DNA from: Octopus vulgaris
Taxonomy: Eukaryota
Direction: 5' to 3'
Assembly: GCA_951406725.2 (NCBI GenBank)
Contig: OX597814.1
Location: forward strand, 126,046,001-126,110,000
DNA: 64,000 nt
Position numbers and translations under genes: made by a program. Each line of letters opens with the position of its first letter. Position 1 is the first letter of the stretch. Under the pieces are notes generated by a model. It worked only from the letters and a program-made list of their open reading frames with translations. It ran no database searches and had not been told where the DNA came from. Below, in pieces: positions 13,542-50,479 of this stretch.

Positions 13542-14054
13542 TGTGTACTAAATGTGCATAAATTATCACTATATATAATTGTACTACCACTACAGAAGGC
13601 TACAGATGTTTGAGGCTGTATTTGCCTCTGTGTGTGTGTGTGTGTGTGTGTGCACATGCGTGCACGGGCACGTGTGAGCATTTGTGTAAATAAGTAGTGC
13701 TGCAGGAGGCTTGCAGTTGAATACATTTGAATCTTGAGATGAAAACTTAATTTTAGTTATTATTTGATCAATGTTTTTGTGTGAAATAGCCACAATACTG
13801 AAGAAGCCTTCTTCTACTATTGTGTCAGGAACTAACTACATTGTATGTAGTGGGATTGCCTGAAGACTCAACCACAGATATCTACATTTGTAGTTCCATG
13901 CATTCTTACAGGTCTTCAAAAGTGCCTATTTATTTGTGTTACTCTACTCATCTGCAAGTATAGAGATACACATTCAGATATATGTATATACATACATACA
14001 TACTGGTGGAATAAGATGCTACAGGCAAAATCTGTAGCTCCATTTACTCACCAT

Positions 14055-14171
14055 ATACATACATACATACATACATACATACATACATACATACATACAT
14101 ACATACATACATACATACATACATACATACATACATACATACATAGATATATGTATGTATGTATATACATG

Positions 14172-14209
<38 letters not shown>

Positions 14210-14240
14210 CATATATTATAATCTGTGTGTGTGTGTGTAT
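14055..14240. repeat. (CATA)n, (TA)n and (TG)n compound microsatellite
   Basis: Direct inspection. Confidence 0.95.
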
Positions 14241-14242
14241 AA

Positions 14243-14690
14243 AATGAACTGTGAACTTATTTCCTTATTTCTTTACTCTCTACTCTTCTGTTTCATCACT
14301 AATTTTCTGCAAATTTTCCATGTCTAAATCTTTTATCTGACTATTTCTATATCTAGATCTATCATATGTTCTCTACTTGTCTCTGATGACAGAATACCCC
14401 ATATTCAGGCATACTTGCCTATCACTTGGAATATCCCAGAAACAGCTGTAAGATCTCAACTAATTTTAAAATAATATAAAATAATGTATATGACTTGAGA
14501 TGCCTGTAATGCCTTGGCATTTGTTGTCTTCTTTCACAAATATATATCTGCTAAATCGGAAACCTAAAATGGATCCATAGCTCCTGTCTTGGTTATGAGC
14601 TTGAAACCCTGATAATCTATTACAGCACTTACACAGCATACCTATTCATTTAGATCACCAGTGAACTAAACCCACATATTCTATATTGTA
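14243..14690 (+). mobile_element. ORF-less hammerhead-bearing repeat, family A, copy 1 (Penelope-derived / retrozyme-like)
   Basis: Colinear similarity to ~39131-39485 (atgaactgtgaact ... hammerhead core ... atgccttggc ... tttagatcaccagtgaactaaacc); flanked by microsatellites. Confidence 0.75.
14379..14454 (+). ncRNA. Type I hammerhead ribozyme motif (family A)
   Basis: gtct-CTGATGA-[49-nt stem II]-GAAA-c-agct-g-TA-agat; stem I gtct/agat (one G.U pair), palindromic stem III, GUA cleavage triplet. Confidence 0.8.
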
Positions 14691-14702
14691 TATACATATA
14701 TA

Positions 14703-14704
<2 letters not shown>

Positions 14705-14755
<51 letters not shown>
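14705..14755. repeat. (TA)n microsatellite
   Basis: Perfect run. Confidence 0.97.
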
Positions 14756-14759
<4 letters not shown>

Positions 14760-14769
14760 ATGCAATATA

Positions 14770-15650
14770 CAAATGGGCTGATTAAAATCATGACCAGTTC
14801 AATGTTGATAAGTTCCAAGCACTCCCCTATTGACCCACAAACAGACTACAATCTACATAGGACCATGGGGTAGTGCAATCCCAGAGTTAGAATCGGATAC
14901 TTGACCTGGAATCCATACGAGCAGTGATGCAGCATTGCATGTGCATATCGCCAGGATGGCAAAACTGTGCAGGCGAGCAGCTAGATGGATCCTTAGGTCA
15001 TTCAAAACCAGAAATAAGGATACCTTGCTACTTCTATAGAGGACATTTGTCCTCAGTCGCCTGGATTACTGCTCCTATCTGTGGTCACCATAGAGCATCA
15101 AATTAATGGAAGAACTTGAGGCAATCCAGCACCACTACACAAACAAGATTGACTCAGTGAAACAGATGAGCTACTGGGAGAAGTTTCAAGAATTGAAGCT
15201 CTACTCCCTGAAGAGAAGGCAAGAAAGGTATGCAGTGATATATATATGGAAGATCCCAGAAGCTCTAACTCCCAACTCTGGAATTAAAAGCTATAACAAC
15301 CTCCAAACTGGATGGCACTGCATAATACCAAAGATAAAGTCTTCTTCATCACAGATAAGGACTCAGTATTGCAACAGCCTGGGTTTCAGAGGACCAAAAC
15401 TGTTTAACATTCTGCCAATGAACCCAAGAGATCTGTATAGGGGTGGAACCATTCAAAAAGCTGAGGGACAAAATTCTATCTGAAATCCCAGATGAGCCCA
15501 TATCACAGCAGAAGGCAGAAATAAGACCAGCTTCATCCAACTTGCTTCTTCACCAAGAACAGTACCAAAAGGAGACCCAAAAACACTTAAAGGCAGTGCT
15601 CCAGCATGGCCCCAGCCTCAGGTTGAAGCGAGTAAAAGAATAAAAGAATA
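14770..15650 (+). mobile_element. 5'-truncated CR1-like LINE, 3' end of ORF2 plus tail
   Basis: EELEAIQHHYTNKIDSVKQMSYWEKFQELKLYSLKRRQERYAVIYIWKI ... SLGFRGPKLFNILP; tail aaggcagtgctccagcatggcc...gtaaaagaataaaagaata. Confidence 0.88.
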
Positions 15651-15718
15651 CATATGTATGTATGTCTGTATACATATATGTATGTATGTATGTATGTATG
15701 TATATATGCATATACATA

Positions 15719-15749
<31 letters not shown>

Positions 15750-16116
15750 TGATAAAAACGATAAGATAACAAAAGAAAGAAAGAGACCTTAATATTATGT
15801 AAATAGAGGAATTTATCTGTAAATGTAATATGTGACAATTATTCGGTAACCAAGATAAAACTCCGAGTTTCGGATGCCGAGGTGGAAATCCACGCCACCA
15901 TCTCTTCAGTTATCCGCCCATTGGAAAAACGGTATGAAAAATTACCGTTATACAAAGGGAAATTACTGTGTTATTGACCGCTATTAAAACAAAAGAGCTA
16001 TTCGAATGACCGCTAAGTAAGGTAAGGGGGTAAAAAGTTCATAGTATTCGCGTAAGCACGCCTGTTCATACCTAAACATGCGCACTCGCACACCCACGTG
16101 CGTATGTATACATTCA
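15750..16116 (-). mobile_element. ORF-less hammerhead-bearing repeat, family B (CpG-retaining, probably young)
   Basis: Begins at a (TA)n tract, has unusually many CpGs for this window and contains a complete hammerhead motif related to 49521-49570. Confidence 0.65.
15854..15914 (-). ncRNA. Type I hammerhead ribozyme motif (family B), complete
   Basis: Minus strand gataa-CTGAAGA-gatg...gtgg attt ccac...catc c-GAAA-ctcggag-TT-ttatc; 5-bp stem I gataa/ttatc, GUU cleavage triplet. Confidence 0.85.
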
Positions 16117-16521
16117 TTCACCAAGAACAGTACCAAAGGCTATGCTCAGCCTTTATAACCACAATAACAGCATGCTTCTTCATTTCTTGAGTTAGCTGAA
16201 GGTCTGCCATTATTATTTTCTGAAAGAAAGATTATACGGAGTTATCAAAAAATGCAGCAATGACCCAAATAAGAATAGAAAAAGTCTTTTACGTTTCAAA
16301 ATGGACACAGAAAAAATAAGGAGAGAAAAAATGTATGTAGTGGCTAACGATCTATCATATATATATGTGTGTGTGTATAAAGTGAGAAAGAGAGATGTAC
16401 ATACATAAATATATACTTGCAGGTGAACACATACATATACATATATATAATAAGAAATTATTATTAAGTCTTTAAGAAAAAGCAGATTAGCTGACCGCAC
16501 ATGCAGTCATATATTATTATT

Positions 16522-38190: not shown

Positions 38191-38812
38191 TAGGGTGCGA
38201 TGGATAAATTGTCGCCTTTTAATTTTGCACATGCACATTTTGTTTTTTATTTTGCCAACTACACAATACAATAGGATCAGTTGATGACTTTCTGTGAGAA
38301 AAACAGCACCATGATGCAATTCACTCTGCCAGAAATTTGAAAATGACATGCTGTACTGCTTGGCATTTGCATCGGAAGTTCCAACACAAACATTTTATAG
38401 AGTTTTGGTGTCAATCTGAGGACAGTGCAGAGGATTCAGAAAGAGTTGGATGAGTCTAATGGTGATCACGAAGGTACGACAGCTCGGAAAACTCACTCTG
38501 ATTGTTCTGATAAGAAAAGAACTCCTGAATTTGTTGGTGAGATCCAAGCTGCAATTGACAATAATCCCTCCAAGTCAATCATGTCCATTGCCAGGTACAT
38601 GGGAGTGTCTGAGTTTCTTATCAGGCAGGTAATGCATGAAGACATTCAGTATTCCTCATACAAGATGAGAAAGGGCCAATTTTTATCCCAAGCCATCAAG
38701 AACAAGGGGAAAGACTGCTCTACAAAGCTTTTGACTAAATTCAAGCATCTCCTCCAACTGAACATGCTTTGTTTTTTTTGTCAGATGAGAAATCTTTCTA
38801 CCAAGATCAGAT
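38191..38812 (+). mobile_element. maT/Tc1-mariner element, 5' half (TIR, HTH, up to the first catalytic D)
   Basis: TIR agggtgcgatggataaattgtcgcc; RTPEFVGEIQAAIDNNPSKSIMSIARYMGVSEFLIRQVMHEDIQYSSYKMRKGQFLS; ends at tcagatgagaaa (SDEK motif). Confidence 0.88.
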
Positions 38813-38900
38813 GTGTAATGTTAGTGTGCACACACAACAGAGTGTAAGCGCCCTGAGAGAAATGTTGGACATAAGAAGCATTGGATGTTGCATGCAAGAG

Positions 38901-38965: not shown

Positions 38966-39130
38966 ATCCTGATGTCTGTCTTTCTCATGCTATACATCCA
39001 CATGAACCATTTACATGCTAGCTAATTACTTAATCCATTGCTTCAGCATAAATGCATCATTCAAAATACTACCTGGATTATACCTAAGGGCTCATACCTT
39101 CATGGAAGTACGGACCAGCCTCTGGAAAAA

Positions 39131-39485
39131 GATGAACTGTGAACTTTATTCTCCTGCCTGTATTCTTCCATTTTATTCTTTATAAACTGTGAACTTTGAT
39201 ACATACTCACCTTGTCTCTGATGACAGAGTACCCAGTGTATGGAGATGCTAGCCTATCACTTGGGATATCCCAGAAACAGCTGTAAGACTTCAAATTCAT
39301 CTTATCCTAATTAAATTATTCCAAATGATTTCAGATACTCATCATGCCTTGGCTTTTGTTGTCCTTTCCCCTCTAATATATTATATACCTGCTAATACAG
39401 ATCCCTAACAGATGACCAATTATAGCACTTACTTAGCATACCCATTCGTTTAGATCACCAGTGAACTAAACCTCTCATATTCTTT
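39131..39485 (+). mobile_element. ORF-less hammerhead-bearing repeat, family A, copy 2
   Basis: Homologous to 14243-14690; ends at a (TA)n tract; may extend upstream to ~39030. Confidence 0.75.
39214..39289 (+). ncRNA. Type I hammerhead ribozyme motif (family A)
   Basis: gtct-CTGATGA-[49 nt]-GAAA-c-agct-g-TA-agac; perfect 4-bp stem I gtct/agac. Confidence 0.82.
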
Positions 39486-49520: not shown

Positions 49521-49570
49521 GAGTTTCGGATGTCGGGGCAGAAACCTGCACCGGCATCTCTTCAGTTATC
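49521..49570 (-). ncRNA. Truncated hammerhead motif (family B); cleavage site and stem I 3' arm lost
   Basis: Minus strand gataa-CTGAAGA-gatgccggt gcag gttt ctgc cccgacatc c-GAAA-ctc, then a junction to S4 sequence. Confidence 0.75.
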
Positions 49571-49714: not shown

Positions 49715-50479
49715 TTAATTCAATAAAATCGCTATTGGCTTCAACCACAGCCTTGGGACATCTTCGAAATCTCCTGCATCTCTTCTGGGCGGTCTCCTTG
49801 TTTAAGTTGGTGAATGCTGCCATAATCCTTGCCTTCAGTTTATCTTTGGAGTTACAAGGAGTTTTGTTGGTCTCTCACTTAACTGTGCTCCACACATAAT
49901 AATCAAGGGGGTTATAGTCTGGGGAGTTATGTGGCCAGATGTTAGGAGTGATGTGGTTGCAGAAATTGTCTGACAGTCATGACTGGATTCTCCTATTTGT
50001 GTGGCATGGTACAGAGTTCTGTTGCCAAACATAAGGTCTTCTTTTAGCCACCCTTTCGACCCAGGCCAACACTACCTCCTCCAGGCCCTTGATGTAGGCC
50101 TCCGTGTTGAGTCTGAGGCCATATGATAAGATGAATGGAAGCATGACATCGCCATCGCTAGTGATCACTCCAAACATCATGATGTTGACTGGATGTTTGA
50201 TTTTTATCACTCTCGGTACATGTTTTGGGGATATGGTAAGCCAACGGTTGTTCTGTGTTCACCATCAGTTTGAATTGGAGCTTCCAGCATAAATACCAAG
50301 CAGTACACTATGTCATTTCCAAATTTCTGACACACTGAATTGCATCATGGTGCTGCTTTTCTCACAGACAGTGCCCAACTGACCCTGCTATACTGTATAG
50401 TTGACAAAATCGAAAACAAACAATGCACATGTGTGAAATAAAATATTTAAAATGGCAACAATTTACCCATCGCACCCTG
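49715..50479 (-). mobile_element. maT (DD37D) Tc1/mariner element with internal deletion
   Basis: TIR cagggtgcgatgggtaaattgttgcc plus TA at 50480-50481; IMMFGVITSDG...VWQQN(D)SVPCHT...WPHNSPDYNPLDYYVW with 37 residues between the second and third catalytic positions; C-terminus AVVEANSDFIE. Confidence 0.88.

Follow-up and report, generated by a model that had tools for sequence, protein, structure and literature searches.

Two probable Hydra-clade Penelope-like families behind a hammerhead-bearing microsatellite locus of Octopus vulgaris

Introduction

What are the two hammerhead-bearing repeats that face each other between microsatellites in the genome of Octopus vulgaris, and how did they come to lie there? 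The window analyzed here is the whole 64-kb stretch of DNA that holds them (G000:C1:126046001-126110000), and a first-pass annotation had described its repeats as two unrelated, ORF-less families (A and B) of non-autonomous ribozyme retroelements, set side by side in an insertion hotspot, with Penelope terminal repeats named as a candidate source. Low in vitro activity, a long stem II and a short stem I have been described for the hammerheads of Penelope elements (PMC4209133; review PMC6765202), and the function of the hammerhead in endonuclease-positive Penelope-like elements has been called unclear (PMC8557442). Here we ask to which elements the two repeats belong, and whether those elements appear to need their ribozyme at all.

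The locus and its hammerhead motifs

The layout described at first pass is confirmed, as the A copy (+, 14243-14685) and the B copy (-, 15750 to ~16120) converge on a CR1-type 3' fragment, and TA/CATA tracts adjoin both copies (Table 1). In longer A copies elsewhere, the element sequence continues upstream where the window has the microsatellite tract at 14053..14240. The B copy shares 85-86% identity with the pLTR of an intact young element. For the fragment between the two copies, the family name CR1 is one that we presume from motifs in the translation of 14756..15650 (+); a Pfam search of the fragment gave no match, and the genome holds 1,565 candidates for it, most of which, among the best 40 scored, extend to the query end. 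A 21-bp stretch of this CR1 end recurs, about 570 bp away from the first copy, at the 5' junction of B, where the second copy (16117..16137) is likely a templated piece. A target-site duplication was also considered for this repeat and was rejected, given that CR1 copies elsewhere continue without a break across the first copy (15549-15569). Elsewhere in the window, fragments resembling Tc1/mariner transposases are found at 38401-38847 (+), for which Pfam gave a weak hint (E 0.033), and at 49977-50258 (-).

Table 1. Features of the 64-kb window, in order of position.
Feature	Position	Strand	Remark
(CATA)n/(TA)n/(TG)n tract	14053..14240	.	The A copy is cut short at its 5' end here
Family A copy 1: 5'-truncated 3' end (pLTR) of an old, very probably Hydra-clade Penelope-like element	14243..14685	+	Collinear RT-EN-pLTR in L106 and L107
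Type I hammerhead motif A1	14379..14454	+	Stem III palindromic, core at 14383-14389; cleavage predicted after 14450 (GUA)
(TA)n tract at the fixed 3' end of A, putative target site	14689..14755	.	TA-run statistics of other A copies
CR1-type LINE 3' fragment with tail	14756..15650	+	Translation; unrelated insertion separating A and B
21-bp stretch within the CR1 end	15549..15569	+	Recurs at the B 5' junction
(TATG)n/(TG)n/(TA)n tract past the CR1 tail, putative target site	15653..15749	.	TA part adjoins the B 3' end; TA-run statistics of other B copies
Family B copy 1: 5'-truncated 3' end (pLTR) of a very probably Hydra-clade Penelope-like element	15750..16120	-	Older, canonical-core subfamily
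Type I hammerhead motif B1	15854..15914	-	Stem I of 5 bp; core canonical; stem II of 11 pairs, interrupted; stem III near-palindromic; cleavage predicted after 15859 (GUU)
Second copy of the 21-bp CR1 stretch, at the B 5' junction	16117..16137	+	6-base microhomology overlap with B
Family A copy 2, diverged subfamily	39066..39485 (ends approximate, by eye)	+	TA tract at 3' end
Hammerhead motif of A copy 2	39214-39289	+	G10.1 lost
Fragment of a sister B subfamily	49521..49570	-	Retains only the core, stem II and the 5' arm of stem I

Of the four hammerhead cores that had been proposed, all four are present as core-type motifs, at 14383 (+), 39218 (+), 15909 (-) and 49565 (-), but only the motif at 15854-15914 (B1) is intact. 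G10.1 is replaced by A in both A copies, and the 49521 copy, which stops within stem III, has neither the cut site nor the stem I 3' arm. In A1, stem II is further mismatched, and from its sequence this motif is likely to be weak or dead. The same A state was counted by eye in 17 of the first 100 genome matches listed, the rest having G, a pattern that would fit CpG decay after insertion. The stem II of B1 has 11 interrupted pairs, and a long stem II is known for Penelope hammerheads (PMC4209133).

B1 alone, among the window copies, satisfies the type I core (CUGANGA / GAAA / UH) together with stems I-III, and it is likewise the sole pass in the window of the full descriptor (core plus stems I-III), which nothing passed in any of 100 shuffles. 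By itself, the core pattern does not exceed chance in the window, with 10 matches against a shuffle mean of 5.13 and 8 of 100 shuffles reaching 10. At E<=1, an Rfam scan of the window gave 103 matches; none was a hammerhead, and all were microsatellite look-alikes. When single copies were folded by free energy the hammerhead fold was not obtained for A, and two-copy folds pair via stem III; these folds do not speak for activity. Across copies, the named stems are paired in 89% of cells for A (17 copies) and 96% for B (19 rows), compared to 12-56% for slid partners. No stem covariation above shuffles was seen within families A (17 copies) and B (19 rows), as would be expected of neutrally decaying copies. 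In the other hammerhead families found in flanks, stems differ in sequence yet are still complementary.

At least four such further families, with different stems and a palindromic stem III, lie in the flanks of fetched loci (L039 and the L136 flank; L030 and the L111 flank; L109; L137), which implies that the genome holds many more hammerhead-bearing repeat families. The hammerhead stem II of family A occurs in a short-loop and a long-loop form (L088, L089, L092, L096).

The completeness of the B1 motif could also suggest that the window copies cut host pre-mRNA from within an intron, as had been speculated. Evidence in the window, however, does not support this idea. No host exon was identified in the window, three of the four copies are damaged, and the opposite strands of A1 and B1 mean that one transcript holds one motif and no dimer partner. 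B1, the only intact motif, is moreover present singly, and motifs of its type reportedly need a partner (PMC4209133). We consider cleavage of host transcripts here to be highly improbable, and the window copies are likely inert leftovers.

The elements behind the tails

A search of the genome (2.8 Gb, 227 contigs) yielded 2,764 first-look candidates for A and 3,035 for B, 40 of which were scored for each family, in agreement with the abundance foreseen for both. The families were not found to be ORF-less, as both run upstream, in other copies, into a reverse transcriptase (RT) plus GIY-YIG endonuclease (EN) frame. When older B loci were walked upstream, 7 of 29 reached endonuclease-coding sequence within 1.5 kb, and the longer ones reached RT. 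Within the same distance endonuclease was reached from none of the first 29 A loci; the link for this family came from longer walks, in which RT, endonuclease and hammerhead tail are collinear in L106 and L107, in decayed copies only. No intact A element was seen among the best 150 scored out of 7,711 candidates, the 12 closest having frames of at most 467 aa, and family A looks old and dead. The view of A and B as unrelated thus holds for their DNA, which has no significant similarity (best E 0.23), but not for their proteins, which are homologous (locus L106), with 38-48% identity in RT and 26% in the endonuclease. Two of the loci, L009 and L013 (on contigs C31 and C24), have flanks that are 99.4% identical, reflecting a recent duplication or an unplaced assembly duplicate.

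Family B is a single ORF encoding RT and, at its C terminus, a GIY-YIG endonuclease in an element of less than 3 kb (unit ~2,588 bp), its domains being named by motifs, by likeness to published Hydra proteins and by Atlas look-alikes; the latter include clusters with GIY-YIG (26-50% of members) and RVT_1 (18-77%). Searches of Pfam, NCBIfam and PDB sequences returned no match naming an RT or endonuclease. The intact B ORF of 708 aa carries RWK at 37, DKT at 114, CxCX5C, YKDD, CxxC and CxH, with no CCHH, and the Hydra clade is defined by RWK, DKT instead of DKG, CxCX5C, CxxC and CxH about the conserved E and N residues, and the absence of CCHH (PMC8557442, section 11). Compared by eye with Hydra-1_Obim of Octopus bimaculoides, the B protein agrees at 28 of its first 44 residues, and the best of its 1,022 database relatives is 52% identical. 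In family A, RT precedes EN in the decayed copies, DKT is present in L106 and CxCX5C in L106, L108 and L109, along with decayed CxxC and CKH motifs; RWK was not seen in A, the region in question not being recovered from decayed copies. An assignment to the Neptune clade was dropped, as this clade has a CX2-5CxxC linker, CCHH and DKG, and B has CxCX5C, DKT and no CCHH. On the strength of these motifs, both B and A very probably belong to the Hydra clade.

Hydra-1_Obim (Craig et al. 2021, PMC8557442) is the described relative to which A and B can best be compared. Like B, it is an element of less than 3 kb with a single ORF for RT and, C-terminally, a GIY-YIG domain; it shares RWK, DKT, CxCX5C, CxxC and CxH with B, and has a (TA)n target and, near its 3' end, a type I hammerhead with a palindromic stem III and a GUU/GUA site (PMC8557442). 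More generally, A and B share the hammerhead layout shown across Hydra families in File S2 of the same paper: a GUU or GUA site, a palindromic stem III and, beside stem II, one extra base. The stem sequences of A and B, however, differ from that of Hydra-1_Obim (PMC8557442), indicating other families. Furthermore, the entry for Hydra-1_Obim there reads "no pLTR but 4 copies"; B, by contrast, possesses true pLTRs, numbers its copies in the thousands and gave at least 107 matches free of stops. Family A differs from it by an added Asn/Thr-rich linker, a long low-complexity insert which we observed to separate the RT thumb from the CxCX5C motif (L088, L089, L092, L096).

Taken with the insertion pattern described below, these data argue strongly, and with little doubt on our part, that A and B are the 5'-truncated tail ends of two hammerhead-bearing, Hydra-clade Penelope-like families that likely inserted independently at neighbouring TA microsatellites. 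The tails would then be the pLTRs of autonomous elements, as the mention of Penelope terminal repeats had anticipated, and not non-autonomous ribozyme retroelements. What is new are the A and B families; the Hydra clade and its hammerheads are already known, (TA)n targets and an octopus member included (PMC8557442), which is the very outcome that the first-pass annotation had named as removing novelty.

Several of these traits are shared with the Penelope hammerheads of PMC4209133, namely a short stem I, a long stem II, an extra base after A9 and a palindromic stem III, as well as an occurrence mostly as solo copies from truncated elements and in opposite-strand pairs. Unlike those, A and B also have an extra base before G12, and the stem II of B has 11 pairs with two internal mismatches.

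Insertion pattern and proposed mechanism

The association with microsatellites extends to the genome as a whole. Of the copies that extend to the 3' end, not counting those of the window or one duplicated locus, 25 of 28 older B and 11 of 22 A have a TA run after it, versus 3.2% and 4.7%, respectively, of random flank positions; in young B the count is 23 of 24 (one pattern miss). Both families prefer TA tracts and occur at an estimated ~1-2 copies per Mb, and the alleged hotspot at 14243-16137 needs no special cause. The two insertions of A and B into neighbouring TA microsatellites are likely independent, and the window locus is an ordinary one, with two dead transposon stumps.

Another reading of the tails is that they are non-autonomous retrozymes, copied as short units via small circular RNAs with a borrowed Penelope enzyme. 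Most A and B copies are in fact short and ORF-less, a 2026 preprint (10.64898/2026.07.22.740005) derives animal retrozymes from Penelope pLTRs, and non-LTR animal retrozymes resemble A and B in their type I hammerhead and their link to Penelope pLTRs (PMC7229834; 10.64898/2026.07.22.740005). In both families, however, the tails combine fixed 3' ends with ragged 5' ends that are not fixed at the cut site. Retrozymes are tandem repeats of 150-450 bp (PMC7229834), and a check for tandem arrays found one same-strand pair closer than 1 kb in 82 loci, a sample biased to best matches, and no short-period array of the retrozyme type. Where tandems of these elements occur, their period is that of the full 2.58-kb element, and, unlike non-LTR retrozymes, A and B have an autonomous ORF in the same family (PMC7229834). 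We hold a retrozyme origin to be very improbable, if slightly less so than the cleavage of host introns.

Within the preferred reading, that of truncated Penelope-like elements, the window copies can be accounted for as follows. As known from the biology of the family, the endonuclease would nick AT-rich DNA at a (TA)n tract, and target-primed RT would then copy the element RNA starting downstream of the ribozyme site, some 108 nt past it in B and some 235 nt past it in A. Reverse transcription would usually terminate early, leaving hammerhead-bearing stumps like those in the window, and the 5' end would be sealed through microhomology, to which the 6-base overlap with the 21-bp piece might correspond. 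Since every full 3' end includes sequence past the cut site, the template would have been uncut, or re-ligated, at its 3' hammerhead. The ribozyme itself would fold as a dimer through the palindromic stem III, and likely trims some of the long transcripts.

Upstream of the element, 8 of 29 A loci and 6 of 29 B loci carry a partial copy in inverted orientation; two of these A loci represent one duplicated locus. In young B, the 3' end falls 27-32 nt (9 loci) or 95-108 nt (14 loci) past stem I among the 24 examined, and the two end points, approximately 70 nt apart and both at TA-like sequence (L117-L140), recall the two RT start sites of PMC11167929.

The young B branch and its U4C change

The young B branch carries the 708-aa ORF in units of ~2.58 kb, and its copies show a median of 2 differences in 1,152 bases (276 pairs from 24 loci). 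In a search with the B protein, the best 108 of 22,281 candidates were scored, and all of them were stop-free and, except for the query itself, 86-87% identical to the query. All 24 young intact-ORF loci examined have a C at core position 4 (U4C). Exact-pattern counts over the genome gave at least 3,558 copies with C4 and at least 1,833 with the canonical U4, with 88 in other states and none in the reversed controls.

The possibility that the canonical U4 arose by CpG decay of C4 (CCG to CTG) was rejected, as CCA, its mirror product, and other non-T/A states total 88 versus 1,833 CTG, and as all 17 older B loci that align with the window copy at this position carry CTG. Because the U4 of older copies is not explained by CpG decay, and because U4 is found in all 26 Hydra rows of File S2 of PMC8557442, in contrast to the C4 of the young B branch, the sequences suggest that C4 is likely the derived state. 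U4C considerably lowers activity in vitro, yet it sufficed for viroid infectivity (PMC3088659), and by analogy this core change likely weakens the ribozyme of the young branch as well. U4C does not appear among the variants described in the available part of PMC4209133. In the literature searched, which did not cover Lunse et al. on dimeric Penelope hammerheads, where U4C may appear, no report was found of U4C in a Penelope-like element; the only prior reports that these searches brought up concern octopus hammerheads (PMC8557442) and U4C (PMC3088659).

That the youngest, mass-amplifying B branch carries U4C suggests that the ribozyme is probably not required for insertion. In the available portion of PMC11167929, furthermore, hammerhead mutants had no effect on the in vitro insertion of another Penelope-like element, and no RNA ends were seen at the site. 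One could tentatively go further, and propose that the youngest and most prolific B branch spread to more than 3,500 hammerhead copies after U4C made its ribozyme nearly inactive. Such a history, which we regard as a possibility somewhat short of even, would be evidence, from within a genome, that Penelope-like elements spread without need of hammerhead cleavage, and maybe spread better with uncut multi-unit transcripts. In this regard, the older U4 and young C4 branches offer a matched natural pair for asking whether these elements need their ribozyme.

Multi-unit insertions do occur in family B, in which head-to-tail spacing of 2,578-2,591 bp was found in 7 of 24 young loci. Within 7 partial tandems, the upstream and downstream units differ by 0-3 substitutions, as one template would give. 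An alternative view would keep the elements as described here and make the hammerhead active and necessary: it would divide tandem transcripts into monomers or circles of 2.58 kb, from which the multi-unit insertions are templated, with U4C retaining enough activity for the purpose, as the result in viroids would allow (PMC3088659). Old and young B do indeed keep stems I-III and the remainder of the core, and hammerheads are also kept in other families with different stems. Against this, minimal PLE hammerheads cleave poorly in vitro (PMC4209133), and the catalytic mutants of PMC11167929 were without effect on insertion. Moreover, the five units of one array are mixed, although later events or assembly error could explain this. 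The array in question (L161-L162, G000:C1:57208775-57222587) is a 13.8-kb insertion in a TA tract, made of four head-to-tail B units, an inverted partial and a fifth unit; its units are not identical, as three share six private substitutions, one is of the majority type and one is a mosaic, and the mixture could come from mixed templates, from later conversion or other events, or from an assembly error. A needed hammerhead is in our view rather unlikely, and a little less likely than the spread of the young branch with a nearly inactive one, even though a circle-based route is possible. We favor a ribozyme that is probably dispensable for insertion.

Family B supplies many near-identical, intact Hydra-clade copies, and the one purified Penelope-like protein that we found in print belongs to another clade (PMC11167929). 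A repeat annotation of octopus counts 30 recently active Penelope families (PMC13282606), and its library may already include the B element; the words "hammerhead" and "ribozyme" do not occur in the main text of that paper. With regard to expression, contigs from three sequencing runs that we guess to be RNA cover the young ORF with no splice joint and bridge the cut site; contigs, by their nature, cannot show ends, strand or level. For one young locus (L120), a single contig of 2,189 nt in one of the guessed-RNA runs covers the young ORF from end to end with 6 differences, while a DNA-like run splits into many variants; this hints, weakly, at expression from one or few source copies.
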